The translations under genes and the position numbers were made by a program. Positions 8,888 through 37,713 of a stretch of 64,000 nucleotides of DNA are shown piece by piece. Position 1 is the stretch's first letter; every line of letters starts with the position of its first letter. The stretch is taken from NCBI GenBank assembly GCA_035430005.1, contig DAOMFV010000001.1:25619-89618 (forward strand). Reading direction: 5' to 3'. Source of the stretch: Gemmatales bacterium. GTDB taxonomy: Bacteria > Planctomycetota > Planctomycetia > Gemmatales > HRBIN36. The notes below the pieces were generated by a model, which was given only the letters and a program-made list of their open reading frames with translations, was not told where the DNA came from and ran no database searches.

Positions 8888-8976
8888 TCTAACAAGGGCC
8901 TGTTTGGAAACGCCTTATTTCCAGGCCAATTTGAGTATAACTGCCGATTCGGCTAGAATTTGTGGCTGCTATGCAT

Positions 8977-12487: not shown

Positions 12488-12497
12488 CAACACTGCG

Positions 12498-17034: not shown

Positions 17035-17368
17035 ACGATCCTTACTGATGGCATTGCTTCACCAGGTGCACTGCATCCAGGCGCAGAATGGAGATGCTGA
17101 CGTCGAAGAGATTGCGGTCGAAGCCGGTCCTCTCAGCGGGGTGGAACCCGATTTGCTCAGCACTGCTTTTACGGAGTTCACTCCACAACATCCTTACGCC
17201 AGGTTGACGATACGAGTCGTTCCGATGACATTTCTCTGTAAATCCTGTTGTCAAACGTGGACTATGGAGCGATTCGCCAGCGAGTGCCCAGCTTGCCTTT
17301 CTACCAATGTGCAAATCACCGGAGGCGATGCATTCCGGCTGCTTCATGTTACACTCAAGGATAGCTAG
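17027..17368 (+). CDS. hypA: Hydrogenase nickel-insertion protein HypA
   Basis: Has the MHERS N-terminus (the MHE nickel site) and a zinc motif CKSC...CPAC. Confidence 0.9.
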   Translation: MHERSLLMALLHQVHCIQAQNGDADVEEIAVEAGPLSGVEPDLLSTAFTEFTPQHPYARLTIRVVPMTFLCKSCCQTWTMERFASECPACLSTNVQITGGDAFRLLHVTLKDS

Positions 17369-17381
17369 TGGATCATTGCCG

Positions 17382-20310: not shown

Positions 20311-20320
20311 GGACCAACTG

Positions 20321-20593
20321 ATGTGCCTGGGTATCCCTGGCGAAGTGACACGCTGGATCGATCGCGATCCTCTCCTGGCCCGGGCCGAGGTGCGCTTTGG
20401 TGAATTGCATCGCGTCTGTCATCTCGCTTGTGTTCCCGAAGCCGAGGTCGGCGACTATGTTATAGTCCATGCCGGCATTGCCATCAGCAAAGTCAACCCC
20501 CAGGAGGCCCGCCGATTGTTTGACGAGATTGACAAGTTCGAATTGCAACACGAACTGGCATCTGATATCCCTCCTCCGTGCAACAGCTCATGA
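20321..20593 (+). CDS. hypC: Hydrogenase assembly chaperone HypC
   Basis: Has the characteristic MCLGIPGEV N-terminus and is 90 aa long. Confidence 0.92.
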   Translation: MCLGIPGEVTRWIDRDPLLARAEVRFGELHRVCHLACVPEAEVGDYVIVHAGIAISKVNPQEARRLFDEIDKFELQHELASDIPPPCNSS

Positions 20594-21687: not shown

Positions 21688-21701
21688 CCGGAGTGCCTTT
21701 C

Positions 21702-22767: not shown

Positions 22768-25173
22768 ATGTCCCGCTTCATTCGCTGGTTCTCCGATCTC
22801 TCCATCGCTGACGTTCCCCTCGTTGGTGGCAAGAACGCTTCACTCGGCGAGATGTATCGTGAACTGACGCCGAAGGGGATTGCAATTCCGAACGGTTTCG
22901 CCGTCACTGCCGATGGCTACCGGGCTGTCGTCAAGGAAGGCAAACTGGCTGATGTTCTCAAGCGATATCTGACGGGACTCAACACCAGCAACCTTGCCGA
23001 TCTTGCGGAACGTGGCCGAGCGATTCGGGAAGCCATCCTGAACACTCCGCTTCCTGGTGAGCTTCAAACCAGCATCGTTCAGGCCTATCTGCAACTGGAC
23101 AAGGAGTATGGCCCAGACCCCGATGTTGCTGTTCGCTCCAGCGCCACCGCTGAGGACTTGCCCGGAGCCAGCTTTGCCGGCCAGCAGGAATCGTTTCTCA
23201 ACATCCGTGGCGAACGGGCTTTACTCGATGCCTGCAGGCAGTGCCTGGCATCTCTCTTTACGGATCGTGCCATCTCATACCGGGTGGATAAAGGCTTCGA
23301 TCACTTCGCTGTCGCCCTTTCCATTGGCGTGCAGAAGATGGTTCGTTCGGACCTGGCCTGCTCCGGTGTGCTCTTCACCCTCGATACCGAAAGCGGCTTC
23401 CCCGATGTGGTGCTGATCAACAGTGCTTACGGCCTGGGGGAAACCATTGTCAAAGGCCGCGTTGATCCTGATGAGTTCCTGATCTTCAAACCCATGCTGG
23501 AGCGAACACAGCTTAAACCGATCCTCAAACGCCGTATCGGCTCCAAGCAGGAGAAAATGGTCTACGCCAGTCGTGGTGGAAAAAGCACTCGCATCGTCTC
23601 TGTTCCACTGGAACAGCAGCAATGTCTCAGCGTAAATGACGATGAAGTCCTCTCGCTGGCCCGCTGGGGATGCCTCATCGAGAAACACTATTCCCAGAAA
23701 GCGGGCCATCCCGTACCGATGGACATCGAATGGGCCAAGGATGGCCAGACTGGCAAATTCTTCATTCTGCAAGCCAGGCCGGAAACGGTTCACGCCATGA
23801 AACAGCAGGCTGAGATCGAGGTATTTCAACTGCAGCAGAAGGGAAAGGTCATTCTTCATGGCAAGAGCGTCGGTGCTCGCATGGGTGCCGGCGCAATACG
23901 CATCATTCGAAATGCAGATGAACTGGCACAATTTCAGCAGGGCGAAGTGCTGGTCGCGGACATGACCGATCCCGACTGGGAACCGACGATGAAGATGGCT
24001 GCTGCCATCATCACCAACCGTGGCGGACGAACATGCCATGCCGCCATCGTCAGCCGGGAACTCGGCGTACCATGTGTTGTGGGAACAGAACAGGCTACCG
24101 CCTTGCTGAAACCAGGTCAACCCGTCACGGTCTCATGTGCCGAAGGTGATGTTGGCAAAGTCTACGATGGCAAGCTGTCTTTCCAGCGAACCACCATCGA
24201 CGTCAGCAAGATGCCTCGCCCTAAGACCAAGGTCATGATGAACCTCGGCGATCCGGACAAAGCCTTTGCTCTGTCGACCCTGCCTAATGATGGAGTCGGC
24301 CTGGCACGGGAGGAGTTCATCATCTCCTCGTTCATTCGTGTGCATCCACTGGCACTACTACGTTTCGATGAACTGCCAGCCGGCGAGGAGAAGGACGAAA
24401 TCGCTCGGCTGACACAACATCACCCGAAAAAGGCTGATTACTTTGTTGAGAAACTCGCTGAAGGTGTCGGGCAATTGGCTGCCGCCTTCTACCCCAAGGA
24501 TGTCATCGTCCGCCTCTCCGATTTCAAGACCAACGAATATGCTGGCCTGCTAGGCGGCAAGCCTTTCGAGCCGAGCGAAGAAAATCCCATGATCGGCTTC
24601 CGCGGCGCCAGCCGGTACTATGATTCCCGCTACCAGGATGGCTTTCTGCTGGAATGCAAAGCGATGCGCTATGCACGGGAGGTGATAGGCCTGACGAACA
24701 TCAAGCTGATGATCCCCTTCTGTAGAACTGTTGCCGAAGGCGAGAAGGTACTTGCTGTCATGGAGAAGGCCGGGCTCAAACGTGGCCAAAACGGCTTAGA
24801 AGTCTACGTCATGTGTGAAATCCCCAGCAACGTGATCCTTGCGGAAGATTTTGCCCGTATCTTCGATGGCTTCTCCATCGGCTCCAATGATCTCACGCAA
24901 CTCACGCTGGGGCTGGATCGCGATTCCAATATCGTTGCCCATCTTTTCGATGAACGCAACGCTGCTGTCATGCGACTGATCGAGGATGTTATCAAGCGAG
25001 TCAAGGCTTGTTGCCGGAAGATCGGCATCTGTGGCCAGGCACCGAGTGACTACCCGGAGTTTGCACAGTTCCTGGTTCGTTGTGGGATTGATTCCATCTC
25101 GCTCACACCTGATACGATCCTGAAGACGACGCAGGCTATTCTGGAAATGGAAAATCAAAGCTCCGGTCGATGA
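22768..25173 (+). CDS. ppsA: Phosphoenolpyruvate synthase (pyruvate, water dikinase)
   Basis: Starts MSRFIRWFSDL...VGGKNASLGEM. Contains the phosphohistidine region GGRTCHAAIVSRELGVPCVVG and the PEP-utilising C-terminal domain (GFSIGSNDLTQL). GAAGGAG precedes the ATG at 22768. Confidence 0.93.
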   Translation: MSRFIRWFSDLSIADVPLVGGKNASLGEMYRELTPKGIAIPNGFAVTADGYRAVVKEGKLADVLKRYLTGLNTSNLADLAERGRAIREAILNTPLPGELQTSIVQAYLQLDKEYGPDPDVAVRSSATAEDLPGASFAGQQESFLNIRGERALLDACRQCLASLFTDRAISYRVDKGFDHFAVALSIGVQKMVRSDLACSGVLFTLDTESGFPDVVLINSAYGLGETIVKGRVDPDEFLIFKPMLERTQLKPILKRRIGSKQEKMVYASRGGKSTRIVSVPLEQQQCLSVNDDEVLSLARWGCLIEKHYSQKAGHPVPMDIEWAKDGQTGKFFILQARPETVHAMKQQAEIEVFQLQQKGKVILHGKSVGARMGAGAIRIIRNADELAQFQQGEVLVADMTDPDWEPTMKMAAAIITNRGGRTCHAAIVSRELGVPCVVGTEQATALLKPGQPVTVSCAEGDVGKVYDGKLSFQRTTIDVSKMPRPKTKVMMNLGDPDKAFALSTLPNDGVGLAREEFIISSFIRVHPLALLRFDELPAGEEKDEIARLTQHHPKKADYFVEKLAEGVGQLAAAFYPKDVIVRLSDFKTNEYAGLLGGKPFEPSEENPMIGFRGASRYYDSRYQDGFLLECKAMRYAREVIGLTNIKLMIPFCRTVAEGEKVLAVMEKAGLKRGQNGLEVYVMCEIPSNVILAEDFARIFDGFSIGSNDLTQLTLGLDRDSNIVAHLFDERNAAVMRLIEDVIKRVKACCRKIGICGQAPSDYPEFAQFLVRCGIDSISLTPDTILKTTQAILEMENQSSGR

Positions 25174-26584
25174 CCAGCCCCAGCTTGGCCAGTTTGGCGC
25201 GTAGCGTCGGTCGGCTGATGCCCAGAATCTGCGACGCCTGCGACTGGTTCCCTGCGGTTTTCTGCAACACTTCACGAAACAATTGTCGTTCCACAGATTC
25301 AACGACTTCTTCGTAAAGGTTTTTACTGCCCGTTTGAAGTCGTTCTCGAATCAGATCAACGATGGGTTGCTGCCCGCCAGCAGGCCGTTCATGGTGCGAG
25401 AATGATCCCGTTTTAACACCACGTAACTGATCGGGGAGGTGTTCAGGAAGCAATACGGGGCCGGTCATGCAAAGCAGCGCATGCTTGATGGCACTTTGTA
25501 ACTCTCGGATATTTCCCGGCCATGAGTATGATTCCAGCAGAATCATGGCCTCGGGAGAAAGTGATTGAACTTCCTTCTCCATTTCCTTGCCATACTGGCG
25601 TACAAAATGGGATAGAAGGATCGACATATCTCCAGTCCGCTCGCGTAAAGCGGGTAATCGAATCGTAAACACATTGAGACGATAATAGAGATCAGCGCGA
25701 AACACTCCCTTGGCAACTGCCGACTCCAGATCGCGATTCGTCGCTGCGATCACACGGACGTTGGTCTGAATGGTCTCGGCACCACCTACCCGTTCAAACC
25801 TCTGATCCTGAAGCACACGGAGAATTTTCGTCTGCATGAGAGGCGTCATGTCGCCGATCTCGTCAAGAAACAGCGTGCCGCTGTTGCACTGTTCAAACTT
25901 GCCGATGCGTTTGCGATCTGCTCCTGTGAATGCTCCTTTTTCATGTCCGAAGAGTTCACTTTCAAGTAATGTCTCAGGTATGGCGGCGCAATTGATAGCC
26001 AGGAATGGGCCATTGGAACGTTTGCTATAGTGGTAGATGGCACGCGCCACCATTTCCTTCCCTGTGCCGCTTTCACCAAGAATCAGCACCGTCACATCCT
26101 GTGGTGCCACTCGTCCGATGGCCTTGTACACTTCCTGCATGGCCGAACATTGTCCGATCAACACATCACCTTGAGTCTGTTCTGACTCCGATGAGGGCAC
26201 CAAAGCGGGCACTTGCATCAAGCGACTCGATTGCAAAGCGTGATCCACCAACTCGGTTAATTGATCGGGATCGATCGGCTTAACAACATAATCGAAGACC
26301 CCCTGGCTCATAGCTTCAATCGCTGTCTCGGCAGTGCCATGCCCCGTGGCCAGGATGAAAGGGACCTTGGCTGCCTGTTCGCGCACCCTGCGATGCACAT
26401 CGAGGCCGGTTCCATCTGGTAGACGCAAATCGCAGAGGACGACATTGGGCTGATAGCGTTGAAAAAGAGAAATACCCTCTTCTGCTGTCGTCGCCGTCAG
26501 CAGTTGAATGTCTCGATCTTCAAAGGCGTATCGATAGCACTTCAGTGTTAGTGGGTCATCATCGATGGCTAACAAGGTGGGCAT
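25136..26584 (-). CDS. Sigma-54-dependent response regulator (NtrC family: REC, AAA+, Fis-type HTH)
   Basis: Has a REC domain (LLAIDDD...DLRLPDGTG), Walker A GESGTGKE, the GAFTGA loop (EKGAFTGA), and the C-terminal HTH QASQILGISRPTLRAKL. Confidence 0.92.
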   Translation of the reverse strand: MPTLLAIDDDPLTLKCYRYAFEDRDIQLLTATTAEEGISLFQRYQPNVVLCDLRLPDGTGLDVHRRVREQAAKVPFILATGHGTAETAIEAMSQGVFDYVVKPIDPDQLTELVDHALQSSRLMQVPALVPSSESEQTQGDVLIGQCSAMQEVYKAIGRVAPQDVTVLILGESGTGKEMVARAIYHYSKRSNGPFLAINCAAIPETLLESELFGHEKGAFTGADRKRIGKFEQCNSGTLFLDEIGDMTPLMQTKILRVLQDQRFERVGGAETIQTNVRVIAATNRDLESAVAKGVFRADLYYRLNVFTIRLPALRERTGDMSILLSHFVRQYGKEMEKEVQSLSPEAMILLESYSWPGNIRELQSAIKHALLCMTGPVLLPEHLPDQLRGVKTGSFSHHERPAGGQQPIVDLIRERLQTGSKNLYEEVVESVERQLFREVLQKTAGNQSQASQILGISRPTLRAKLAKLGLVIDRSFDFPFPE

Positions 26585-26599
26585 AGAGGCTCCGATGGT

Positions 26600-28522
26600 T
26601 TATTTCACAAATTGCTGCAAAATCGACAATAGTTGTTCATCTGAATAGGGCTTCTGCAGAAATGCCTTAGCGCCTGCAGCAAAGATCGTTCGCAGCCGTT
26701 CCGCTGAGCGGAGTCCGCTGCACGCAATGATTGGCACTTGGGGATTGATTTCACGCATCTGTTGCATGACCGCGGGGCCGTCCAGCCCCGGCATCATCAT
26801 ATCGACAAGAGCAGCACGAACCTTGGGATGGTGCTCCGAAAAAAGAGCAAGAGCAGACATGCCATGCTCAGCCGTCAGAGTTTGGTAACCGCTATTCTGC
26901 AGGACAGCCTGAACGGTTTGAACAATGAGCGGCTCATCATCAACAATCAAAATGAGTTCACCATGTCCCCGGAGCGAGGAAGTTGCCTCGGTCTTGTCTT
27001 CGACAGCCATGTTGACTCCGGTCGCAGGCAGGTAGACAGTTACTCGAGTACCTTTGCCTATTTCACTGTAGACGTTAAGAAACCCTCCATGACTGCGCAC
27101 AATCCCCAGTGCGGTGGAGAGCCCAAGTCCTGTGCCTTTGCCAATGCCTTTGGTAGTGAAGAACGGGTCAAAAATCTTGTCGAGAACTTCGGGAGGGATC
27201 CCGCTACCCGTATCAGCCGCGTCCAAGAGCACATAAGGGCCTGGCTTGGCATCAGGATGAAACTGGCTGTATTCTCCACCGATCACAACGTTCTCAGCTC
27301 GGATGGTAAGCACACCACCGGCCGGCATTGCATCTCGCGCGTTCACGCAGAGGTTCATCAATACTTGCAAGAGTTGGGTTTTATCCCCTTTTACGGTCCA
27401 CAATTCCCCATCGATATTTGTTTCGATTTGAATCGTCTTGCTGAGAGTATGCTGCAACATCTTCTCGACTTCGCCTATTAAAGGCGAAATGGCGACTTGT
27501 GTTCGCTCACCTTCCATACCTCCAGCGAAAGAGAGCAACTGCTTGACCATGTCGATGCCACGCTCCACGCTGGCCTGGGCAGTGCTAAGAAGGTCTCGGG
27601 GTTTCTCATCGGTTACATACTTCCGCAACAGCTTGACGCTCATCAGAATGGGAGTCATAACATTGTTGAGATCGTGAGCGATCCCCCCTGCCAGTACACC
27701 GATACTCTCCAACCGTTGTGCACGAAGAAACTGTGACTCCAGTTTTTTCCTTTCCGTCATATCGATGTTGATCATCAGCTTGGACTTGGGCTTGTTCTGT
27801 TCGTTATGAATGAGTGTCCAATAGGAGGCTACCGTCAGCCGTCGTCCATCTTTAGTGTCGTGGTGCAACTCTCCCTGCCATTCACCTTCCTGTTCGATGA
27901 GGCGGTGGATCTCATCCATGCTGAGACCTTGAGGATGAGAGCAACACTTCAAAACGTGGCAATCTTGTCCGATCGCTTCCTGTGCCGACCAGCCGTAAAG
28001 ACGCTCGGCGCCGGCATTCCAGTAGTTAATGCGATCCTGTAAGTCAGTGACAAGAATGGCTTCCCTGACATTGTTGAGCAACTGAGCCTGTTCACGCAGC
28101 TTTCGGTCATTTTCTTTGCGAGCAGTGATGTCACGAACAAACCCGGTGAATCGTAACTCGTTTTCCGTGCCACACTCTCCAACAGCTAACTCGATGGGCA
28201 CGAGTGAGCCGTCTTTCCTTTTTCCAATCACCTCTCGACCGATGCCGATGATTCGTGGCTGACGTGTCGTGAGGTACTGCTTCAAGTAGCGGTCATGTTC
28301 TTCACGAAACGGCGAAGGCATTAGTATGGTGATATTCTGCCCAACGATTTCTTTTTCCTCATAGCCAAAGATTCGCTCCGCAGCCCGATTGAATTGCTCA
28401 ACCGTTCCATCACTCTTGATCGTAATAATACCATCGACGGCAGTATCCAGAATGGAACGTAAATACGCAGCTTCCTCATCCGCCTTCTTGACGAATTCAC
28501 CGTTGTGTGCTGATTCAGCCAT
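26600..28522 (-). CDS. Hybrid sensor histidine kinase (two PAS domains, HisKA, HATPase_c, REC)
   Basis: Two PAS-like segments are present. Contains the H-box GGIAHDLNN, the N/G boxes ([23 protein letters not shown]) and a C-terminal receiver (LIVDDE...DMMMPGLDG). It ends 15 nt before the regulator gene. Confidence 0.9.
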
Positions 28523-28737
28523 GATGCGAATAGCGCTTCCTTTTTCGTTACATCAGTCCTCGCCCGTAACATCCAGAATGTGACACCAATTATTGACGTG
28601 TTGTCCTCTGTGCGGCAAGTATTTTTCCAGATTGCGCATGGATTGTACAACCAGAGCAGGAAGCGTAACCCTTGTTCATTTGTCACGTGGAGCACAGAGT
28701 TTAGCAAAACCTGACGAAGGTAAGATCCTTGTGCCTC

Positions 28738-28753
28738 TGGCATTGAATCTGCT
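28738..28753 (+). promoter_or_regulatory. Sigma-54-type promoter (TGGCATtgaatCTGCT)
   Basis: GG-N10-GC spacing is exact. The -12 GC lies 45 nt upstream of the ATG at 28797. Confidence 0.65.
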
Positions 28754-28796: not shown

Positions 28797-29939
28797 ATGC
28801 ATACCCTCTCACGCGATACGATCAAACAACTTGTTGAGCTATCCCACTCACCTGGCCTGATGCTGTCGTGTTATGTCAACTTGAAAGTGCAAGGAGCGTC
28901 CGAACGTCCTGGGATACTTAAAATCAAACACGCAGCCTCGCTACTGAAGCAGAGCATTCCTGAATCATTATCTGAACGGACAGAGTTCGAACAGAATATG
29001 AACAGGATCATCAAGGCCCTGGATGATCCAAGTCTTCACAACAATCATGCTATTGCAATCTTTACCGCCAAACAGAGGGATCAATTTATGATCGTTCCGT
29101 TGGGGATGCCCATCTTAACAGAACTCGTCAACAGTGATAGACCCTACCTGGTTCCGCTGCTGCAATGCCATTTTGCACAACAACGCGAGTATCTTGGGCT
29201 GACATTTGACAACGATCAGGCACGAATATTCCTGGCAAATGCCGGAACTGTCAAGCTGCTGAAACACTGGCATTCTGATGTTCCCACCAAACAGCACTCC
29301 TCCGGTGATCGCGGAGCCTGGTCCCAATCGAATATAGCTAGCCGTCGAGAAGAGATGCTTGATCGCCACCAAAAAGAGATGATCGATGGCTTCTCCAAGG
29401 CGCTGCAGGAACATCCACAAGCCGGTATTCTTCTGCTTGGGCACGAAGTGGAAGTGACTCAGTTGAAGAATAAGCTGCCTCCTCACTTGAGCGGTCGGCT
29501 AGTTCACACGGGGGTGTGTAACAACATGGATTCCGAGAAGTCGCAATCTAAGACCATCCTTGAGATCGTTCGGAAGCAGAATGTGCTTCATGCGCAGTCT
29601 CTGCTCAAAGAACTGAAACGACGCCAATCACTGAAGACGAGTTGTGCCGTCGGGCCAGCTGATGTACTGGCTGCGCTTGACACAGGAAGGTTAACACAAA
29701 AGGGCAGCTTACTTCTGGGGCCCGATCCAAAGGAGGACGCTTTCCTCTGCACGTCGTGCCGTCACCTGGCCTTGGACGAGGTCAAACAATGCCCGCGTTG
29801 TGGCAGTGGGTGCAAGTCCTGCAATTTGTGGGAAGAAATTCTCTTGAGAGCATTTCGCCATCAATGGAATGTAGTACCCGTCGATGGCTCAGAGGGCCTG
29901 ACGAAATCAGGCTTTATTGCAATGCTCCTTGAAGTCTAG
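28797..29939 (+). CDS. Bacterial eRF1/Pelota-like (baeRF-type) protein with C-terminal zinc ribbon, lacking GGQ
   Basis: The N-terminus LSRDTIKQLVELSHSPGLMLSCYVNL, the central ...GDRGAWSQSNIASRREE..., and the C-terminal GPADVLAALDTGRL...SLLL follow the three-domain eRF1 layout. A zinc ribbon CTSC...CPRCGSGCKSC follows. No GGQ tripeptide occurs anywhere. The start at 28797 was chosen from the conserved N-terminus and the promoter position. Confidence 0.6.
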   Translation: MHTLSRDTIKQLVELSHSPGLMLSCYVNLKVQGASERPGILKIKHAASLLKQSIPESLSERTEFEQNMNRIIKALDDPSLHNNHAIAIFTAKQRDQFMIVPLGMPILTELVNSDRPYLVPLLQCHFAQQREYLGLTFDNDQARIFLANAGTVKLLKHWHSDVPTKQHSSGDRGAWSQSNIASRREEMLDRHQKEMIDGFSKALQEHPQAGILLLGHEVEVTQLKNKLPPHLSGRLVHTGVCNNMDSEKSQSKTILEIVRKQNVLHAQSLLKELKRRQSLKTSCAVGPADVLAALDTGRLTQKGSLLLGPDPKEDAFLCTSCRHLALDEVKQCPRCGSGCKSCNLWEEILLRAFRHQWNVVPVDGSEGLTKSGFIAMLLEV

Positions 29940-30148: not shown

Positions 30149-30478
30149 ATGACCAAAGCTACTCGTGAAAAGTATCGTCAACAGTTGCTCACACTGGCTA
30201 AAGAAGTCGGCAGAGAATCAGTACACCTCAAGGATGAGGCGGTTCATCCACTGGCCGAGTTGTCCGGACAATTTTCCGAAAAGCACAATGAGCAAGCTGA
30301 GTTGGGAGTAACCATTTCGCTTCTGAACAACGAAGAATCGCTCTCGTCGGAGATCAAAAGTGCCCTCCAACGAATTGACGACGGCACATTCGGAATATGC
30401 ATGAAGTGTCAAAAGTCCATCACCCAAGAGCGTCTTAATGCCATTCCCTATACACCTTACTGCATCCAATGTGCATAG
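30149..30478 (+). CDS. DksA/TraR-family C4 zinc-finger protein
   Basis: The C-terminus is LQRIDDGTFGICMKCQKSITQERLNAIPYTPYCIQCA (CxxC-x17-CxxC), preceded by a predicted helical region. AAAGGA lies upstream of the ATG. Confidence 0.8.
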   Translation: MTKATREKYRQQLLTLAKEVGRESVHLKDEAVHPLAELSGQFSEKHNEQAELGVTISLLNNEESLSSEIKSALQRIDDGTFGICMKCQKSITQERLNAIPYTPYCIQCA

Positions 30479-30511: not shown

Positions 30512-30736
30512 ATGTTAAAGCAATCGACTCCTCTTCTGATTCAGCTTTCATACCTCCAACAGAACATGAGGGAGCAATTGCGATTCCAGATTCAGAATCT
30601 CCGACTGGAGTTGCGTAACAACGAGATCGTCCTGCTCGGCCGTGCCAGGTCGTACTATCACAAGCAGCTTGCCCAGGAGCTGGTGATCAAGAGAAACTAT
30701 GCCGAGAAATTGGCAAATGAGATTCTGGTAACGTAA
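30512..30736 (+). CDS. Small BON-like domain protein
   Basis: LRLELRNNEIVLLGRARSYYHKQLAQELV...LANEILV fits the BON pattern (x-V-x-V-x-G-x-V-x-L-x-G-x-V...N-x-I-x-V). The gene is 33 nt downstream of the DksA-like gene. Confidence 0.45.
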   Translation: MLKQSTPLLIQLSYLQQNMREQLRFQIQNLRLELRNNEIVLLGRARSYYHKQLAQELVIKRNYAEKLANEILVT

Positions 30737-30744
30737 TCAACTGA

Positions 30745-31059
30745 TCAATAACGAGTTACATCTTGTCTAATCCCCGGCTGAATCGCAACAGGTTTACTGA
30801 TCTTGCTGGGAGGCTGATCATGGTTGCTATGATTATTTCGCTTGTCTAGGAGCATTCGGGCATTGACTTCATCCCAGGCACTCACCATTCCTCGGATTTC
30901 GAGGATACCCGTGAAACCGGCCTGATGCTCTCCTTCAAGCAGGCACTGAATCCCTTCAGATTCCGGCATGTTCTTGAGGATTTCTGCCTCGGCAAATTGG
31001 TTCGTGGAAAAGGCGATGACCGGTTCGTTCTTCACTGCGAGTCTCCTTAGCGGATTCAT
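30745..31059 (-). CDS. DUF2007-like small signal-transduction-fold protein
   Basis: VIAFSTNQFAEAEILKNMPESEGIQCLLEGEH...LEIRGMVSAWDEVNARMLL resembles the DUF2007 pattern. It is the last gene of the minus-strand stress operon. Confidence 0.4.
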   Translation of the reverse strand: MNPLRRLAVKNEPVIAFSTNQFAEAEILKNMPESEGIQCLLEGEHQAGFTGILEIRGMVSAWDEVNARMLLDKRNNHSNHDQPPSKISKPVAIQPGIRQDVTRY

Positions 31060-31610
31060 GTTTTGGATAAGGCCTTAAGCAGTTCTTCAGTCTTCGCTCT
31101 TCCGCCATGGCCCTTGCTTACGAGCGAGAAGGTGACAACGCCCTTGGTATTCACGCCAAAGGTTGCAGGGAAGACCGTTTCATTAGGAGCGGCCCAGCGT
31201 AAGCCATACTTAGCCGCAAAGCCGTAATCCGGGTCGGTGACAAGCCGAAAGTTGTTGGGCAGCATTTTGTCAGCAAGAAATTCACGTGCATGCTCGTCCA
31301 ATTTGCCCGCGGCACCAGGATAGATCAGGAGCACAGTTGCTCCGGCATCCATAAAACTGCTCGATTTACTAATCAAGTCAGCGACCTGTTTTTGGCATAT
31401 TTCACTTTGTGCTCCAGGGTAGCCTCGCAGAACAATGATGGCGACAGGACCTTTTTCATACAGAAGTGACAACTTAACCGAAGAGCCATCCAGCGTCTTG
31501 AGCTCAAAATCCTGAGCAGTTTCCCCGGTCAAGGGCGATTTGTCCCATTCAGGAAGAGTAGCTTGCAGGAAAAGCAGCCCGAGAACAAGCGATATGTGTG
31601 ACAAAGTCAT
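31056..31610 (-). CDS. Secreted redoxin/peroxiredoxin-like (AhpC/TSA family) protein
   Basis: The N-terminus is signal-like (MTLSHISLVLGLLFLQA). The thioredoxin-fold block is FELKTLDG...GPVAIIVLRGYPGAQSEICQKQV. The alternative start at 31637 would overlap the upstream gene by 11 nt and has no RBS. Confidence 0.6.
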   Translation of the reverse strand: MTLSHISLVLGLLFLQATLPEWDKSPLTGETAQDFELKTLDGSSVKLSLLYEKGPVAIIVLRGYPGAQSEICQKQVADLISKSSSFMDAGATVLLIYPGAAGKLDEHAREFLADKMLPNNFRLVTDPDYGFAAKYGLRWAAPNETVFPATFGVNTKGVVTFSLVSKGHGGRAKTEELLKALSKT

Positions 31611-31626
31611 GTACAAGATGCACCTC

Positions 31627-32739
31627 TCATGATCCATTTTTCTTGCGCATTGCCATGGCAGTGCGCACTCGTTCCGTTGCTAGGTCAACCGCAGCCTGGC
31701 GGGGTGAGATTCGTTCATCCCGTGAACGTGTAAAGACAGATCGGGTATTATCTCGGATTCGCTGCGCAATCATGTCGAATGCCAAAGACTGGGTGCCACC
31801 ATGAAATTCGACGGAAGCACAAATGACACCGCCTGCGTTAGCGATAAAATCGGGTACGACAAATACGCCTCGTTCCCGTAGAGTCGTTTCAGCAGCATGG
31901 GTAGCCGGGATATTGGCTCCTTGAAGAATCAGTTTCGCCTTGATCGACGCAACATTCCTTTCATTTATGCAGTCAGGCTTGGCTGCGGGGATCAAAATGT
32001 CGCAAGCTACGCCAAAGAGGTCCTTTGCCTCCATCTTCTTGCCGCCTGCGTAACTGGTAACCGTTCCAGTACGGTCCTTGGTCTGTATCAGTTTCTCGAT
32101 ATCGATGCCCTGGGCATCGTACACGGCACCCTTGCTATCGCTTGCTGCTACCAACCTCACCCCTAGCTCAGCAAGAAACTGCGCAGCGGGCCGTCCAACG
32201 TTGCCGAAACCTTCGATGCCGAGTGTTGCCCCTTTGAGCTTGAGCCCGGCAAATTCAGAAGCGACTTCCGCGCAACGTGCCAGTCCATAACCAGTCGCTC
32301 CAATCTTATCCAGAGGTATGCCACCCAGTACACTGGGAAGACCGACTGATCGGCCAATCTCATCCCAGATCAACCCCATGCACGTTTCATCGGTGCCCAT
32401 ATCAGGACCGGGAATGTAACTCGTTAACTCACGAATGCTACGAGCAAAGCTACGGACCAAGCTGGCTTTGTTCTTGCCCTTCGGATCGGCGATTAAGCCT
32501 GCCTTCCCTCCTCCGTGGGGCAACCCTGCGGCTGCATTTTTAAGTGTCATGGCCCGTGCCAGCCGATAGACTTCATCCACACTGACATCCACCGCCATCC
32601 GTACGCCCCCGATGGCAGGACCGCATGCGGTGTTGTCGATCACTACAAATCCCCGCATTTCCGTGTGAGGATCAAAAAGATGCACAATCTTCTCAGGACC
32701 AAGCACATCATAATATCTATCTAAGGCGGTCGTTGACAT
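31627..32739 (-). CDS. Glu/Leu/Phe/Val-family amino-acid dehydrogenase
   Basis: Contains the catalytic-Lys block AAAGLPHGGGKAGLIADP and the Rossmann motif GIEGFGNVGRPAA. The ATG at 32739 is preceded by GGAGA. The longer ORF start at 32910 overlaps the upstream gene. Confidence 0.85.
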   Translation of the reverse strand: MSTTALDRYYDVLGPEKIVHLFDPHTEMRGFVVIDNTACGPAIGGVRMAVDVSVDEVYRLARAMTLKNAAAGLPHGGGKAGLIADPKGKNKASLVRSFARSIRELTSYIPGPDMGTDETCMGLIWDEIGRSVGLPSVLGGIPLDKIGATGYGLARCAEVASEFAGLKLKGATLGIEGFGNVGRPAAQFLAELGVRLVAASDSKGAVYDAQGIDIEKLIQTKDRTGTVTSYAGGKKMEAKDLFGVACDILIPAAKPDCINERNVASIKAKLILQGANIPATHAAETTLRERGVFVVPDFIANAGGVICASVEFHGGTQSLAFDMIAQRIRDNTRSVFTRSRDERISPRQAAVDLATERVRTAMAMRKKNGS

Positions 32740-32780
32740 ATTGTCTCCAGAACACTTCACCGTGGCTCCCGGTCGAATGA

Positions 32781-33635
32781 TCAATGATAAAGGAACAGAG
32801 GCACTGGACTTTCCTTCAGCAGAGTGCGAGTAACCGATCCAAACAAGAAATCCCTGAGCTTGCCGTGACCGAAAACTCCCATCACGAGGATGGAAGGATC
32901 GCAAAGCCATGTCTGCTTGATAATGGCTTGAGCCGGATGATCCTTGCAGACCACGGCATGCACCATGAAGGGGCGATCATGCCAGGTGAGGAAATCGGCG
33001 GCTTGTTGAGCATGTTTTTCAGCCTCGCTATGGCTGGTTGCGATACTGACGATATGCACCTTCTTATCCTTGTCGATCCCTGAAGCTTCGAATGCTTGCA
33101 GCGCTCGCGCCGCTTCTGGGCTGCCATCGTAAGCCACCATAACACACTTGCTCTCTCGAATGCTGTTGGGAACAGTCACAACTGGCCTGGAGCAAAATCG
33201 TGCTACTTCTTTAAGCGTGGCATCCAGTTCTTCCGAGGAACCTCGATGGAAAAAGGTACGTCGCCCGAGCATCACCAGGTCGAAGCGCTGGGCCTGTGTC
33301 GTCAGTCGCTCAGCTGGTACGCCCAGGTCTTCCAGTAGCTTGCATGGCACCTGTCGCTCTGCACATTGAAGTGTGAACTGCTGAAGATATCGTTCCACAC
33401 GCCGCTGATCTTCGTGAAACAAACGTTGGTCCAGGCCGGACGCCTCAGCCAGTGGATCAAAGGGGGGCAGTCCTGGAACCATTTGGCTGGGCAAACGAGT
33501 TACCACTGCGGGCTCATCGACAATACCGATGCCCACCAGCATCGCATCAAGTTGTTTGGCCCAAAGCAAGCCAAGTTCCACGGCAGCATGGCTGAATGGA
33601 GAACCGTCCAGTCCTATGAGTATGCTCTTGACCAT
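32781..33635 (-). CDS. Tandem universal stress protein (two UspA domains)
   Basis: There are two USP units. The first is SILIGLDGS...LVMLGRR. The second is CVMVAYDGSPEA...ILVMGVFGHGKLRDFLFGSVTRTLLKESPVPLFLYH, carrying the ATP-binding G-x2-G-x9-G(S/T) motif. The start is ambiguous (33635 or 33710). Confidence 0.85.
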   Translation of the reverse strand: MVKSILIGLDGSPFSHAAVELGLLWAKQLDAMLVGIGIVDEPAVVTRLPSQMVPGLPPFDPLAEASGLDQRLFHEDQRRVERYLQQFTLQCAERQVPCKLLEDLGVPAERLTTQAQRFDLVMLGRRTFFHRGSSEELDATLKEVARFCSRPVVTVPNSIRESKCVMVAYDGSPEAARALQAFEASGIDKDKKVHIVSIATSHSEAEKHAQQAADFLTWHDRPFMVHAVVCKDHPAQAIIKQTWLCDPSILVMGVFGHGKLRDFLFGSVTRTLLKESPVPLFLYH

Positions 33636-33731
33636 TTCAGCCTCATCAAAGATCCGAAGAAAAGAATCCTCGGCAGCCTGACAGGTGCGATGAGCCATTT
33701 CGCCTGCCAAGGATTCAAAGTCGCCACCGTC

Positions 33732-34205
33732 TCACTTGGTTGACTGGATGGCAATGGGCTTGCCCCGAGCCGTCTCCACCTTGGGGATAGCCACCGTTAG
33801 CAAGCCGTTTTGGAACTTGGCCTCTGCCTTGTCCATGATGCATCCCTCAGGCAACGTGATCGAACGAAAGAGCGAAGAACGGCGTTCTTCCGAGCATTCC
33901 TTATCCTTCACTTCTGATTTGTGCTCTGCCTTCAGCACCAACTCGTTGCCTACCTGCTTCAAATCGATCTCTTTGGCATCGAACCCGGGTGCCTCGAATC
34001 GGGCAATCACCGAGTTGTCCTTCTCTTCCAAGTCCACGCCCCAGGAGGGCTTTTCGTTGTCGAAGAACGACACATCGCCGAAGAACCGCTGGAAGACTCG
34101 ATCCATCTCCTGACGAAACTGATTGAAGACAGGGAACCCGCTCCACTTCGCCAGTGAACCATTGCCGTTCAACTGTTGGGTCTTGCTGGGAATCATGCTA
34201 CTCAT
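33732..34205 (-). CDS. Hsp20/alpha-crystallin small heat-shock protein
   Basis: The alpha-crystallin core is VIARFEAPGFDAKEIDLKQVGNELVLKAEHK...FRSITLPEG...AKFQNGLLTVAIPK. Confidence 0.92.
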   Translation of the reverse strand: MSSMIPSKTQQLNGNGSLAKWSGFPVFNQFRQEMDRVFQRFFGDVSFFDNEKPSWGVDLEEKDNSVIARFEAPGFDAKEIDLKQVGNELVLKAEHKSEVKDKECSEERRSSLFRSITLPEGCIMDKAEAKFQNGLLTVAIPKVETARGKPIAIQSTK

Positions 34206-34266
34206 GGTCTTAGCTCCTTGTGATCAGGGTTTAGGTAAAGTGAAACTGTTGATATGGCGTGCGACA

Positions 34267-34719
34267 TCATCCCTTTACGTTTGACTCTGGGGACAATGGC
34301 ACAATAAGGACAGGGCAAGGAGCCCGCCGCAATACGTGGTCGGCTACGCTGCCAAGAAATAATCGCTTGAATCCAGTACGGCCATAAGTGCCCATCACGA
34401 TTAGATCAGCATGACAGGACTGTGCCTTGCTCACAATCGTTTCAACGGGTGTGCCCTCGATGAACATATCCTCGATCTTAAGACCAGACTTGCTTTCCAG
34501 TATTTGCCGAAGTTTCCGCCGTACATCCTCTTCTGAGACCATCTCATGAGGAATAACAGGAAGATCGCCTGTGCTGAGAGCTTCTATCATGTAGGCATGC
34601 AAGACCACGATCGTGGCGTTAGCTGACTCAGCGATTTGACAAGCCAGTTTCAACGCTTGCTCTGCATTAGGCGAGAAATCGGTCGGGTGCAAAATGATCT
34701 TTGGCGGCCAGGTTGTCAT
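34267..34719 (-). CDS. Universal stress protein (single UspA domain)
   Basis: Contains ILHPTDFS...LIVMGTYGRTGFKRLFLGSVADHVLRRAPCPVLIV. Confidence 0.9.
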   Translation of the reverse strand: MTTWPPKIILHPTDFSPNAEQALKLACQIAESANATIVVLHAYMIEALSTGDLPVIPHEMVSEEDVRRKLRQILESKSGLKIEDMFIEGTPVETIVSKAQSCHADLIVMGTYGRTGFKRLFLGSVADHVLRRAPCPVLIVPLSPESNVKG

Positions 34720-34754
34720 GGTTTAACTCGCAGCAGGTTAACGTGATGACTCAT

Positions 34755-34770
34755 TGCAGACCGAGTGCCA
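34755..34770 (-). promoter_or_regulatory. Sigma-54-type promoter (minus strand TGGCACtcggtCTGCA)
   Basis: GG-N10-GC spacing is exact. The -12 GC lies 37 nt upstream of the usp start codon at 34719. Confidence 0.65.
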
Positions 34771-34952
34771 AAGCTTAAAAATACGTCGGGAGTAGCCACC
34801 GTGCTGAATGGCAATTCAGATGTGTGAGAAGTCGAAATGCCTGCCGTCGAGAAAACTATTTGCTGGAAGTTAATTGCTTTCCATCATGGATAGAAACTTA
34901 CCGGCACAAGTCGGCTTCTCCGATAAAAACACTAGTAGATGGTATTCATGCA

Positions 34953-34968
34953 CGGCACGGAAACTGCC
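34953..34968 (+). promoter_or_regulatory. Sigma-54-type promoter (cGGCACggaaaCTGCC)
   Basis: GGCACG-N4-CTGC with exact spacing. The -12 GC lies 43 nt upstream of the ATG at 35010. Confidence 0.55.
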
Positions 34969-35009
34969 TTCTGGTAAGTAGGGAGGAACACCGAACTGGA
35001 GCACACATC

Positions 35010-35525
35010 ATGCCTGCCACATTACTTGGACAACCACTAGTTCTCTCTTCCGGCACTGTCGATATGGCCATGTCAGACAACCCTGTCTCCGTCTCTGATA
35101 TTGAGACAGCACAAGGCGTGGCTCAAGTGCTCATCGAGCATCGCATCAGCGCTGTCCCGATCATTAATGAAGCTGGGCATCCCGTAGGAGTTATCAGCCG
35201 TACAGACCTGGTCAATCACCTGGTGCAACTTCAGAGTCACGTTCGCACCCTGGAAGAGGACTGGTTTGAATGTGGGAATATCGTTGATGAAGAAATCATA
35301 AGGAGTCAACCCTGTCGGGCGGGTTCCTGGAGCAAGATCACCGCCAAAGCAATCATGAATACAAGATTGTTCACAGTTACACCTGAAGATTCTCTTGAGA
35401 TAGCTGTCGAACTCATATTGAAACACCACGTTCATCGGCTCTTCGTCGTTGATCATGACGGTGTTCTTGTTGGCATTATCAGTACCTTCGATATCCTAAA
35501 CCGACTTGAACGACGTTTCGAGTAG
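35010..35525 (+). CDS. CBS-domain pair protein
   Basis: There are two CBS units (VAQVLIEHRISAVPIINEAGHPVGVISRTDL and AVELILKHHVHRLFVVDHDGVLVGIISTFDIL). The ATG at 35010 has GGAG 9 nt upstream. The ORF part upstream of it has no domain content. Confidence 0.8.
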   Translation: MPATLLGQPLVLSSGTVDMAMSDNPVSVSDIETAQGVAQVLIEHRISAVPIINEAGHPVGVISRTDLVNHLVQLQSHVRTLEEDWFECGNIVDEEIIRSQPCRAGSWSKITAKAIMNTRLFTVTPEDSLEIAVELILKHHVHRLFVVDHDGVLVGIISTFDILNRLERRFE

Positions 35526-35712: not shown

Positions 35713-36069
35713 TTATTGACTTCGGAAGGCAGCTTGTTTGATAATGATGGTGAGGAAGGCAAGCCAGTGCCACCCTTCGAGAACTTTGGCCAGTCGTTCG
35801 TAGTCGCGGGCCAAGTGTCTAAAACGGGCGAGCCAGCCAAAGGTACGTTCCACCACCCAGCGTCGTGGTAACAGCACAAAACCCTTCTTGGCTTCCGTGT
35901 GTTTAACGACTTCCAGACGGATGCCATGCTGACTGGCTTGTTGAGTTGCATCTTCACCGGTGTATCCTTGATCCACATAGGCCAGCGTCACTGTACCACC
36001 AGTGGCCTCTTGCACCTGGGACGCCAATTCAGCCACTTGGGCTCGCTCTTGTTCGTTAGCTGCTGTCAC
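35713..36069 (-). pseudogene. IS5-family DDE transposase, C-terminal fragment only
   Basis: Contains YVDQGYTG (second Asp region) and LLPRRWVVERTFGWLARFRHLARDYE (Glu region). The N-terminal half with the first catalytic Asp is absent and no terminal inverted repeats were identified. Confidence 0.75.
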
Positions 36070-36159: not shown

Positions 36160-37218
36160 TCATTCATCTTCTACGACAGTTTTCTTAGGCACATAGTCAA
36201 TTGTTGTTCGATCCATGCAAAACCAATCGTTGATGGCCTCCTCTTCGTAGTTAAACACGATTGTTTTCCTCTTGGCATTTTGAGCAAATAAATGGAACTT
36301 GAGATTAAACCCATATCTGAGATTTGGCCGCACTCCACTACGTCCATCAATGCTTTGAAATTGAAGCCCTTGTGTTTCGAGTCTCTTATTCTTTACCGAA
36401 AACTCGATCTCGGCTTCTGGATGCAAAGGGCGACTCAAGTAAGCATGCGCTTTTCCTTGTAGCATTGCAAGTTGAGCATGAACAACAGCATCTAGCCTAA
36501 ATCCTGACTCTGAATGGGAATTCACGAGATTGACAGGGGCATTGGATTCCAAAACAACAAGTATCTCGTGTGCCGTTGCCGTCCCCTTGTTCTGAAGAAC
36601 TAAGATCATCGAAAACTCTACCGAGGCATCGCTTTTCACTCGCATGACTGTGTTCTGTATCAAGTCAAGATCAACCTTGGTAAACGGATAGAACATTTGT
36701 TTCAGCATCGAATGCGGAATTACCTTGCATGACTCGCCAGCACGCATGACATAGGTTTTGGCCGATCCAGGAAATTCTCTGCGGTGTGGCCGATGTGGAC
36801 TGAGAGGAACATAGCAAACCAACACACCCTTATCTGGGCCAGCGGTTTCAATCGGTAAGTATCGGACACCTTGAACGGGTGGATCGTTGGCAACGTGAAT
36901 CTGCTTAGTCAGAATGGCTTGCAGTTCGGACAGTGATTGAACTGGTACAACTTCGCCAGGGGTGTCTCTGGAAGTTGTACGAATACCGACAATGAGCAGT
37001 CCGCCTTCGGTGTTGGCAAAAGCTGATAAGTATTCTGACCATGCTTCCTGAATCTTGTCTCTGTCGAACTCCGTTGCGTTTTTCATCCAGCATTGTTTGT
37101 AATCAATCCATTCGTGTTCCGATGGCTTGTGTTCCAAGACGTAGGCAATTTGCTCCGCACCTGTATTGAGTTGGTTAAGTTGGCTGAAAAACGATTCAAC
37201 ACGGGATGGAAGGGCCAT
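36160..37218 (-). CDS. Schlafen/AlbA_2-like putative DNA/RNA-binding domain protein with uncharacterised C-terminal half
   Basis: The N-terminal EHEWIDYKQ...LSAFANTEGGLLIVGI...GVLVCYVPLSPHRP...TYVMRAGESCKVIPHSMLKQMF follows the AlbA_2 (PF04326-type) pattern. The gene is visibly AT-rich compared with its neighbours. Confidence 0.55.
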   Translation of the reverse strand: MALPSRVESFFSQLNQLNTGAEQIAYVLEHKPSEHEWIDYKQCWMKNATEFDRDKIQEAWSEYLSAFANTEGGLLIVGIRTTSRDTPGEVVPVQSLSELQAILTKQIHVANDPPVQGVRYLPIETAGPDKGVLVCYVPLSPHRPHRREFPGSAKTYVMRAGESCKVIPHSMLKQMFYPFTKVDLDLIQNTVMRVKSDASVEFSMILVLQNKGTATAHEILVVLESNAPVNLVNSHSESGFRLDAVVHAQLAMLQGKAHAYLSRPLHPEAEIEFSVKNKRLETQGLQFQSIDGRSGVRPNLRYGFNLKFHLFAQNAKRKTIVFNYEEEAINDWFCMDRTTIDYVPKKTVVEDE

Positions 37219-37376
37219 AAATCGGTATTCCTATCGACGATCAAAAGGCAGCTACAAACCCCTCAATTCTTGGAACTGCCATCCATTTTGTCCTAAATTT
37301 TCTTAGGGCAAAACCCTACGCAATTGTCCTAATATCAGAAAGTACAGAATACCCTAGAAATGCAGTCGTATTTGAG

Positions 37377-37449
37377 TGGAGGCGAGGGGGGTCGAACCCC
37401 TAACCCCTAGCTTGCAAAGCTAGTGCTCTCCCAGTTGAGCTACGCCCCC
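37377..37449 (-). tRNA. tRNA-Ala (anticodon UGC)
   Basis: A hand-folded cloverleaf: acceptor GGGGGCG/CGCCTCC with the G3:U70 alanine identity pair, anticodon loop TTTGCAA, T-loop GGTTCGACC, discriminator A. CCA is not encoded. Confidence 0.93.
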
Positions 37450-37493
37450 CGAGTGAAAACCTACGGGATAAACCCGTAGGCTCTTCCAGCCAA

Positions 37494-37567
37494 TGCGCGT
37501 ACTTGGATTCGAACCAAGGACCTCAGCTTTATCAGAGCTGCGCTCTAGCCAACTGAGCTATACGCGC
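37494..37567 (-). tRNA. tRNA-Ile (anticodon GAU)
   Basis: A hand-folded cloverleaf: acceptor GCGCGTA/TACGCGC, D-arm GCTCAGTTGGCTAGAGC, anticodon loop CTGATAA, T-arm CTTGGTTCGAATCCAAG. CCA is not encoded. Confidence 0.93.
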
Positions 37568-37713
37568 GCGGATTGCTAGAATACGAATCCAATTCTAAAT
37601 GCCAAGCCGGTCTTGTCAATCGGCTCTTGTTTCGCTCCGTGTGGTTATCAAGAGTGTCAGCTGGTACATGCGGAATTACTGGAGTGGACACTGTGAAGAG
37701 TATCCTGGTTCGG

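Follow-up and report, generated by a model that had tools for sequence, protein, structure and literature searches.

The sensor-regulator pair and its neighbouring stress genes

The stretch analysed here (hereafter the window) comprises 64,000 nucleotides (nt) of a Gemmatales bacterium contig (DAOMFV010000001.1, positions 25,619 to 89,618 of the forward strand). Between 25.1 and 35.5 kb it carries a hybrid sensor kinase and an NtrC-type regulator, a Balon-family gene, a DksA-like unit, a run of stress genes headed by a universal stress protein (USP) and a divergent gene for a CBS-pair protein. A preliminary description of the window had likened this gene content, together with the tRNA-flanked block in which it lies, to the mycobacterial DosR dormancy regulon placed under sigma-54 control. 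Gene spacing and the start of the CBS gene follow the gene calls of L001, a metagenomic contig identical to the window, and domains were assigned with Pfam unless another source is given:

25136-26584, minus strand: NtrC-type sigma-54 activator with REC, AAA+ (Sigma54_activat) containing GAFTGA, and HTH_8
26600-28522, minus strand: hybrid histidine kinase with a FixL-type haem PAS, a second PAS, HisKA, HATPase and REC (Pfam; PDB comparison)
28797-29939, plus strand: Balon-family (baeRF family 10) ribosome hibernation factor homologue (PF18854)
30149-30478, plus strand: DksA/YteA-like C4 zinc-finger protein (PF01258; TIGR02890 and NF033459 under their cut-offs)
30512-30736, plus strand: open reading frame (ORF) of 74 amino acids (aa) with a weak BON match (E 4.2e-4, under the gathering score)
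30745-34719, minus strand: putative six-gene operon, made up of the next six genes
34267-34719, minus strand: USP
33732-34205, minus strand: Hsp20
32781-33710, minus strand: tandem USP, with two USP stretches
31627-32739/32910, minus strand: ELFV (Glu-type) dehydrogenase
31056-31637, minus strand: AhpC/Redoxin-family protein
30745-31059, minus strand: DUF2007 protein
35010-35525, plus strand: CBS-pair protein, 171 aa (PF00571, E 5e-27; L001 gene call)

The first PAS domain of the kinase (PAS1, residues ~15-145) matches the haem domain of Rhizobium meliloti FixL (1d06; E 8e-38, 56% identity), that of Bradyrhizobium japonicum FixL (E 5e-36, 49% identity) and also the haem-PAS of E. coli DosP. 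Its ILMPxP...HD.Y...IIGIGR segment is intact, with the proximal His and the distal Arg aligned and retained, and we take this segment to hold proximal His200 and the O2-contacting Arg220 in the numbering of B. japonicum FixL. On sequence, PAS1 is a FixL-type haem O2 sensor that would be expected to bind haem; the haem-binding character of the PAS domains was a point that the preliminary description had left to be characterised, and its reading of the gene set as a response to hypoxia is better founded with a FixL-type domain, proximal His included, in the kinase. As for the regulator, its domains make it an NtrC-type activator, as had been proposed, instead of a NarL-type one: the GAFTGA sigma-54 contact loop reads intact in the translation, and the protein matches TIGR01818 with an E value of 1.5e-139, under the cut-off of that model.

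The eRF1-like protein noted earlier belongs by its PF18854 match to the Balon family. A single-sequence search of the PDB with it returned nothing at E 0.01, and a profile of 14 homologues matched Msmeg1130 ('Ribosome hibernation factor Balon (MSMEG_1130)', E 2.8e-11) and Rv2629 (E 9.6e-4). Its AlphaFold (AF2) model has a predicted local distance difference test (pLDDT) score of 84.6, and Foldseek gave template modelling (TM) scores of 0.72 to Msmeg1130 (8v9l_z), 0.66 to P. urativorans Balon and 0.62 to Rv2629. Profile and model place the protein, like Rv2629, in the Balon family of ribosome hibernation factors, and suggest that it binds ribosomes; Rv2629, Msmeg1130 and Balon are known to bind the ribosomal A site with EF-Tu and to block translation. 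The family 10 homologues carry two further elements that are unaligned in Msmeg1130: an invariant QHSSG loop (residues 165-177 of the 28797-29939 product), modelled with low pLDDT where aeRF1 has its GGQ loop, and a zinc ribbon formed by four invariant Cys (residues 318-335).

Pfam bears out every gene of the minus-strand run that had been read as USP, Hsp20, tandem USP, dehydrogenase, redoxin and DUF2007. The six genes plausibly form one operon, since the gaps between them measure only 16-61 nt and none contains a terminator-like hairpin. In keeping with adenine-nucleotide binding, the first USP carries the G-2x-G-9x-G-S motif, as does the tandem USP in its C-terminal half. The divergent CBS-pair gene was likewise rightly recognised: its ORF spans 34824-35525, and the 171-aa gene call of L001 sets the start at 35010. 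Gene calls on three related contigs, L001 and L004 among them, include the 74-aa ORF.

Several side observations concern these products. The Redoxin-family protein (31056-31637) has a hydrophobic N-terminus and a single cysteine motif, PxxxSxxC, and may be active outside the cytoplasm. On the related contig L003 (12351-17694), the gene of a 77%-identical ELFV dehydrogenase comes first in an operon that also encodes malic enzyme, a carrier protein and the E1 alpha, E1 beta and E2 components of 2-oxoacid dehydrogenase, which suggests an amino-acid or 2-oxoacid role for the 'GDH-like' enzyme of the window. In the PDB, the CBS-pair protein is matched best by chains 4-7 of 9znf, 9zni and 9zng, which bear the name 'CBS domain-containing protein', and by 9e6q_3; such chain naming suggests large assemblies. 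BON proteins are neighbours of Balon at other loci as well, and one is encoded in the Burkholderia lxa locus.

Predicted sigma-54 promoters and activator sites

Scanning the window for sigma-54 promoters, and aligning its intergenic regions with those of the related loci L003, L004 and L006, gave the following elements:

28614-28628: predicted activator site GGCAAGTATTTTTCC, ~120 nt upstream of the Balon promoter; an invariant block in alignment A2
28738-28753, plus strand: predicted promoter TGGCATTGAATCTGCT of the Balon gene; kept in L004, L006 and L003
29974-29988: predicted activator site GGAAAGATTCTTTCC, a perfect palindrome; kept in L004 and L003
30093-30108, plus strand: predicted promoter TGGCATGACAACTGCT of the DksA-like gene; kept in L004 and L003
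34755-34770, minus strand: predicted promoter TGGCACTCGGTCTGCA of the USP operon; kept in L004
34860-34902: region shared by the divergent USP and CBS promoters, with GGTAAGTTTCTATCC (34888-34902) and an adjacent GGAAAGCAATT block
34953-34968, plus strand: predicted promoter CGGCACGGAAACTGCC of the CBS gene; L004 has CGGCACGCAATCTGCT at the equivalent place

The -24/-12 scan pattern GG-N10-GC returned five intergenic, correctly oriented candidates. A loose scan allowing two mismatches found 50 matches where 42 were expected, i.e., no enrichment, and the strict pattern GGCAY-N5-CTGC has 7 matches in the 64 kb where 2.2 would be expected, a count that is marginal taken alone because 2 of 100 shuffles also reached 7. 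The informative evidence on promoters is confined to the stricter pattern, together with where its matches lie and how well they are conserved. Four of the seven strict matches fall in the 6.3 kb at 28.7-35.0 kb, where all are intergenic, correctly oriented and 35-56 nt before start codons; the consensus at these four units is TGGCAC-N5-CTGC.

A palindrome, GGnAAG-N3-CTTnCC with GGAAAG-N3-CTTTCC as its full form, occurs at 28614, 29974 and 34888, three times in the window (0.12 expected) and here always in intergenic DNA, a count that is not independent since the pattern was partly derived from these same three sites. For the Balon, DksA-like and USP-operon promoters the predicted site lies ~120 nt upstream; the CBS promoter shares the USP-operon site at a distance of about 50-65 nt. 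Independent support for promoters and sites comes from their conservation in L003, L004 and L006. Both elements are found at equivalent positions in L004 (Balon 76% identical), L006 (56%) and L003 (52%), in alignments whose flanking DNA has diverged to a mean column identity of 55-79%. Compared with L003 and L006, promoters and palindromes are essentially the sole conserved blocks; compared with the closer L004, the conserved blocks include these elements, the longest block among them, and the shared region at 34860-34902 is the longest invariant block in alignment A4. The kinase-regulator operon has a sigma-70-like promoter (28618-28589) whose -35 element overlaps the site at 28614-28628, which hints at autoregulation.

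The sigma-54 wiring attributed to the set in the preliminary description is thus retained, as a prediction, for the Balon gene, the DksA-like gene, the USP operon and the CBS gene. It does not extend to mgtA, the hydrogenase or ppsA, which lie in the other half of the block: the scan found no sigma-54 promoter with a palindrome before mgtA, the cyclic-nucleotide (cNMP)-binding and hydrogenase genes or ppsA, the exception being a weak TGGCACCGCATGCGCT at 9077 in the mgtA leader, from which the palindrome is absent.

Recurrence in Gemmatales and likeness to known low-oxygen systems

The same kinase-regulator pair recurs in other Gemmatales, by sequence comparison, accompanied by varying combinations of Balon, USPs, Hsp20, CBS, DUF2007 and microaerobic enzymes; that the set might travel together had been suggested beforehand, and versions of it lie beside the pair in L003, L004, L006, the P0021 locus and Telmatocola. 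L004 carries the same six-gene operon (65-88% aa identity) and the CBS gene, with a different right flank. Near the pair, L003 has a USP-Balon unit and a DksA-like gene, beside which stands the ELFV-headed malic enzyme/2-oxoacid dehydrogenase operon, and L006 has Balon and an M50 peptidase with CBS domains; within L006 2421-3845, this peptidase gene is preceded by a predicted sigma-54 promoter of its own at 3713 on the minus strand, and an activator-like site lies at 3831. The P0021 locus, on a 125-kb JGI contig, presents on one side of the pair a tandem USP, a thiamine pyrophosphate (TPP) enzyme, a USP, Hsp20, Balon, a cNMP-binding protein and a further USP, and on the other CsrA, CBS-DUF2007, pyruvate:ferredoxin oxidoreductase (PFOR) and cbb3 oxidase. 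In the cultured Telmatocola sphagniphila (CP074694.1, around 4.036-4.041 Mb), the regulator gene (56% identical) is followed by the predicted sigma-54 promoter TGGCACAAAGTCTGCA, by Hsp20 and by the gene of a FixL-like kinase (52% identical). The regulator adjoining the kinase is NtrC-type in the window, L003, L006, the P0021 locus and Telmatocola, and the L004 gene downstream of the kinase is cut off by the contig end and carries no annotation. Overall, differently arranged versions of the set surround the pair in at least five loci.

Beyond these relatives, a scan of a genome collection with the Balon profile found six distant Gemmataceae/Planctomycetota loci, none of which has the pair beside Balon (0 of 6); therefore the pair appears confined to a closer clade. 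The distant Gemmataceae Balon genes (29-35% identical) adjoin Hsp20, MgtA-type pump, CBS, BON or DksA-like genes. Among relatives of the window, Hsp20 and Balon are neighbours in L010 and L012, and a BON gene lies near Balon in the P0008 locus. Sigma-54-type promoters are found at some of the distant Balon genes, and occur before Hsp20-Balon more widely than the pair does.

Among known systems, the DevR/DosR regulon comprises the units hspX, ctpF, Rv2623, Rv2626c-Rv2625c-Rv2624c and Rv2628-Rv2629, Rv2625c being a putative zinc metalloprotease, and in M. smegmatis the hypoxia-induced hydrogenase Hyd3 (beta, gamma, delta and alpha subunits) adjoins a DosR-type cluster (msmeg_3932-3955). The regulon members and the Hyd3 hydrogenase named in the preliminary description agree with this literature. 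Five families are common to the window set and this regulon, which induces Hsp20 (HspX), several USPs including the tandem Rv2623, the CBS-pair protein Rv2626c/Hrp1 and the Balon homologue Rv2629. DosRST (DevRS) also feeds haem-based gas sensing into a two-component regulator, as predicted in the window. Further parallels are the group 3b hydrogenase that adjoins the DosR-type cluster in M. smegmatis and is also present in the window block, and the M50-CBS peptidase of L006, which is under the same predicted control and recalls Rv2625c.

The likeness is nevertheless one of families only, and the gene order differs. The tandem USP matches Thermus TTHA0350 in the PDB at 1e-10 and Rv2623 at 5e-4, the latter over the C-terminal motif only; the CBS protein matches Rv2626c at 1.5e-4, with many other proteins scoring better; and the best PDB matches of Hsp20 are plant and yeast small heat shock proteins, no mycobacterial Hsp20 being among its 29 Hsp20 matches in the PDB, from which HspX is possibly absent. 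Non-mycobacterial proteins outscore the mycobacterial counterparts in every case (tandem USP, CBS, Balon). DosS and DosT are haem-GAF sensors, unlike the FixL-type haem-PAS of the window. The window regulator, the sole one in the block, is of the NtrC/sigma-54 class, whereas DosR is a NarL/LuxR-type protein acting at Dev boxes; the Dev box TTSGGGACTWWAGTCCCSAA has no match with up to three mismatches in the 64 kb. The window ATPase is MgtA-type where the DosR regulon has the Ca pump CtpF, none of the DosR members nitroreductase, narK2, tgs1 and fdxA is found in the window, and the window set has DksA-like, BON-like, ELFV and DUF2007 genes in addition. As judged from these comparisons, the window set parallels the DosR regulon in five families and is not derived from it. 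The functional match lies in the programme, which shuts down translation, provides chaperones, senses nucleotides through USP and CBS proteins and balances redox state, and the set was built independently from widespread families around a different class of sensor and regulator. Where the preliminary description allowed for either a convergent or a horizontally shared set, independent assembly stands and horizontal sharing, given matches at the family level only, does not.

Other systems come closer in single respects. With rhizobial FixL the window kinase shares the haem domain (49-56% identity, ligand His kept). In R. etli, hFixL is a hybrid kinase with a C-terminal receiver, as is the window kinase, and its partner FxkR is of the OmpR type. 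The partner differs in each case, being NtrC-type in the window, the LuxR-type FixJ for FixL and FxkR for hFixL, and so do the targets: FixLJ controls fixK, nif and fixNOQP, and the predicted targets in the window are hibernation and stress genes. The NmpRSTU system of Myxococcus xanthus also passes haem-dependent kinase signalling to an NtrC-like regulator, which binds an inverted repeat upstream of sigma-54 promoters; its induction by hypoxia has been shown, and its regulon includes a CBS protein, a USP, cbb3 oxidase and its own genes. Nmp, however, uses a globin-coupled sensor and a four-protein phosphorelay where the window has a single FixL-type hybrid kinase, its site is GCGCA-N5-TGCGC rather than GGAAAG-N3-CTTTCC, and neither Balon nor Hsp20, both present in the window, is reported in its regulon. 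In Burkholderia cenocepacia, the low-O2-induced lxa locus holds six USPs, an Hsp20/alpha-crystallin and a BON protein contiguously, and published work draws an explicit comparison between it and the DosR regulon; its control is ascribed to a CRP-family regulator of the Anr/FixK type that acts downstream of FixLJ, in contrast to the sigma-54 activator of the window, and Balon, present in the window, is not mentioned for it.

Finally, Balon homologues are reported from operons of the stress response, where they accompany Hsp20, OsmY/BON-type and further stress genes, and from the vicinity of Hrp1 in mycobacteria (Helena-Bueno et al. 2024). The window and its relatives fit this pattern, with Hsp20-Balon and BON neighbours as above. 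No regulator is named for those operons (Helena-Bueno et al. 2024), whereas the window offers candidates for this role in an O2 sensor and sigma-54 promoters; the family 10 protein of the window also keeps the QHSSG loop and zinc ribbon, unlike mycobacterial Balons. DosR-like sets in other phyla, circuits of haem sensor, NtrC-type regulator and sigma-54 in hypoxia, and Balon stress operons are all already described. What appears to be new is their combination in Planctomycetota, a FixL-type sensor with a sigma-54 activator and Balon as a direct predicted target.

A predicted low-oxygen survival regulon and its alternatives

Taken together, we consider that the region at 25.1-35.5 kb is probably a low-oxygen survival and hibernation regulon. 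By analogy with FixL, loss of O2 would leave the FixL-type haem in its deoxy form and activate the hybrid kinase, which would phosphorylate the adjacent NtrC-type activator. The phosphorylated activator would then bind the GGAAAG-N3-CTTTCC sites and open the four sigma-54 promoters, and the outputs would be Balon, the DksA-like and BON-like proteins, the six-gene USP operon and the CBS-pair protein. Balon would park ribosomes and the DksA-like protein may modulate RNA polymerase, while Hsp20 would hold unfolded proteins, the USP and CBS proteins would bind adenine nucleotides, and adjustment of redox balance would fall to the ELFV dehydrogenase and the Redoxin-family protein.

Some points weigh against this reading. 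The kinase has Gln at what we take to be the Arg206 position in B. japonicum FixL numbering (Telmatocola has Arg), so its signalling may differ from that of FixL, and FixL-type haem also binds CO and NO. The phosphotransfer route from the kinase is uncertain, because this hybrid kinase ends in a REC domain and no histidine phosphotransfer (Hpt) protein lies nearby, and no rpoN was found among the scanned window ORFs. The activator-site model is built on few sites, and no DosR-regulon counterpart was verified for the DksA-like, BON-like, ELFV, Redoxin-family and DUF2007 genes. The invariant QHSSG loop and four-Cys ribbon kept by family 10 baeRFs are not found in mycobacterial Balons, so that 'hibernation factor' may not be the whole function of the window protein; Burroughs and Aravind proposed of family 10 in particular that it may be catalytic, and a catalytic or redox-sensitive function is possible from the residues kept.

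The first alternative enlarges the regulon to the whole 28.5-kb tRNA-bounded island, taken as one co-regulated, transferable hypoxia module that includes the hydrogenase, ppsA and mgtA. The features that bear on it are:

8843-8891: left att-like repeat, a copy of the tRNA-Ala 3' part (repeat comparison; letters read directly)
9304-11937, plus strand: MgtA-type (P3B) magnesium P-type ATPase (TIGR01524; Pfam E1-E2_ATPase and related domains)
12020-12487, plus strand: small protein with a cNMP-binding domain, preceding the hydrogenase genes (PF00027, E 3e-13)
12462-16562, plus strand: group 3b-type [NiFe] hydrogenase (NCBIfam, Pfam) with four subunits, B (12462-13631), G (13628-14458), small (14458-15270) and large (15267-16562)
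16555-22754, plus strand: maturation genes for a HycI-like protease, HypA, HypB, HypF, HypC, HypD and HypE (Pfam)
22768-25173, plus strand: phosphoenolpyruvate (PEP) synthase (pyruvate, water dikinase; ppsA; NF005057 1153 bits, TIGR01418 1134 bits)
35713-36069, minus strand: DDE transposase fragment, adjoining the tRNA (Pfam)
36160-37218, minus strand: Schlafen/AlbA_2 protein, adjoining the tRNA (Pfam)
37376-37449, minus strand: tRNA-Ala(TGC), carrying the right repeat at 37374-37422 (ARAGORN, Rfam)
37494-37567, minus strand: tRNA-Ile(GAT) (ARAGORN, Rfam)

The tRNA-flanked block of the preliminary description is real in the sense that a 49-nt direct repeat of the tRNA-Ala 3' part, its copies 47/49 identical and 28,531 bp apart, stands at both borders; the enclosed 28.5-kb block extends downstream of the tRNA-Ala 3' end, and a tRNA-Ala 3' repeat enclosing a block is a classic signature of site-specific integration. 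The group 3b assignment made there is also upheld by sequence: the best NCBIfam matches of the four subunits are sulfhydrogenase HydB/G/D/A and ShyA-D, all scoring under the equivalog cut-offs, and maturation genes accompany them. The P-type ATPase was correctly noted as such, and only its likeness to ctpF fails. CtpF is a Ca transporter, and a CtpF-type (P2A, Ca2+) identity is ruled out by the MgtA equivalog score (TIGR01524, 1118.6 bits against a cut-off of 610.75), Ca-ATPase models scoring far under their own cut-offs.

Hydrogenase, ppsA, mgtA and stress genes are thus linked inside the 49-nt repeats, Hyd3 of M. smegmatis is hypoxia-induced beside its DosR cluster, an MgtA-type pump adjoins the distant Balon gene of L008, and cNMP-binding proteins recur with the set (in the P0021 locus, after Balon). 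Yet the claim that the island as a whole is one regulon falls at the promoters, as mgtA, the cNMP and hydrogenase genes and ppsA all lack an upstream sigma-54 promoter paired with an activator site, and L003, L006, the P0021 locus and Telmatocola lack hydrogenase, hyp and ppsA genes beside the core. As for transfer, Pfam found no integrase beside the tRNA, only the DDE transposase fragment and the Schlafen/AlbA_2 gene, the right flank of L004 is different and the GC content of the block is uneven (0.48-0.57). An exact-sequence look-up of the MacB-like flank gene, for an empty integration site, gave no match. The hydrogenase, hyp, ppsA and mgtA half is physically linked to the sigma-54 units and co-regulation with them is not demonstrable; we judge the island-wide module unlikely.

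A second alternative keeps the regulon and changes its signal to general stress, stationary phase, NO, CO or redox state rather than O2 limitation. USP, Hsp20, CBS, DksA-like and Balon proteins do answer many stresses, the kinase has a second PAS domain, and the Gln at what we take to be the Arg206-equivalent position would fit a departure from FixL; however, PAS1 shares 56% identity, ligand residues included, with a haem domain characterised as an O2 sensor, and the P0021 neighbours cbb3 oxidase and PFOR are typical microaerobic or anaerobic functions, and we regard such a signal as distinctly improbable. It is very hard to credit that common stress genes came together by chance with unshared regulation, an explanation already disfavoured: USP, Hsp20 and CBS are very abundant families, but four conserved -24/-12 promoters have a common upstream palindrome, and the set recurs around the pair in differently arranged loci. 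Least credible of all is shared ancestry with the actinobacterial DosR regulon through horizontal transfer, rejected on similarity grounds despite the wide lateral spread of baeRF/Balon genes and the mobile-element hallmarks of the block, since mycobacterial matches are never the best and barely significant (Rv2623 5e-4, Rv2626c 1.5e-4, Rv2629 9.6e-4 and by profile only), no mycobacterial Hsp20 appears among the 29 PDB matches (HspX perhaps not being in the PDB), and regulator class, sensor fold and gene order differ, with no Dev box.

If the low-oxygen survival regulon is accepted, it offers a concrete regulatory input for Balon-type hibernation, namely an O2 sensor, an activator site and a promoter. 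A DosR-like low-oxygen kit of Hsp20, USPs, CBS and Balon would have been assembled at least twice more under different regulators, and this repeated assembly argues that these families are a functional module for non-growing survival rather than a mycobacterial peculiarity. Planctomycetes are mostly viewed as aerobes at oxic-anoxic interfaces, and the circuit, if true, would account for Gemmatales riding out anoxia; its reduced version in the cultured Telmatocola sphagniphila makes experiments possible. It is tempting to go further and picture a FixL-type sensor re-partnered with NtrC and sigma-54, in which O2 loss directly induces Balon, on a transferable, tRNA-Ala-integrated anoxia-survival island whose group 3b hydrogenase evolves H2 and whose family 10 Balon is perhaps catalytic rather than a passive plug, although this fuller picture is speculative and unlikely to hold in all its parts.

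The remaining observations concern the rest of the block and its flanks. Within the 410-nt mgtA leader, in which Rfam found no Mg riboswitch or other family, TGTTGCA/TTGCA repeats are arranged as an inverted repeat, GCATGTTGCA ... TGCAACATGC (8975-9092), with the sigma-54-like TGGCACCGCATGCGCT ~50 nt downstream; the inverted repeat may be a site for a different activator. The ppsA gene, an 801-aa gene call in L001, starts just past hypE and is convergent with the regulator gene, their 3' ends overlapping by 38 nt (25136-25173). At the right border, tRNA-Ile(GAT) and tRNA-Ala(TGC), a pair usual in 16S-23S spacers, are free-standing, Rfam finding no rRNA gene within the 64-kb window, and a near-consensus sigma-70 promoter (TTGACA-16-TAGAAT at 37619-37592) heads the pair (37376-37619). 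Just outside the block on the left, a 668-aa protein (1853-3859) unites an AhpC/thioredoxin-like domain, a weak cytochrome c match and a copper monooxygenase C-terminal domain, an unusual combination.

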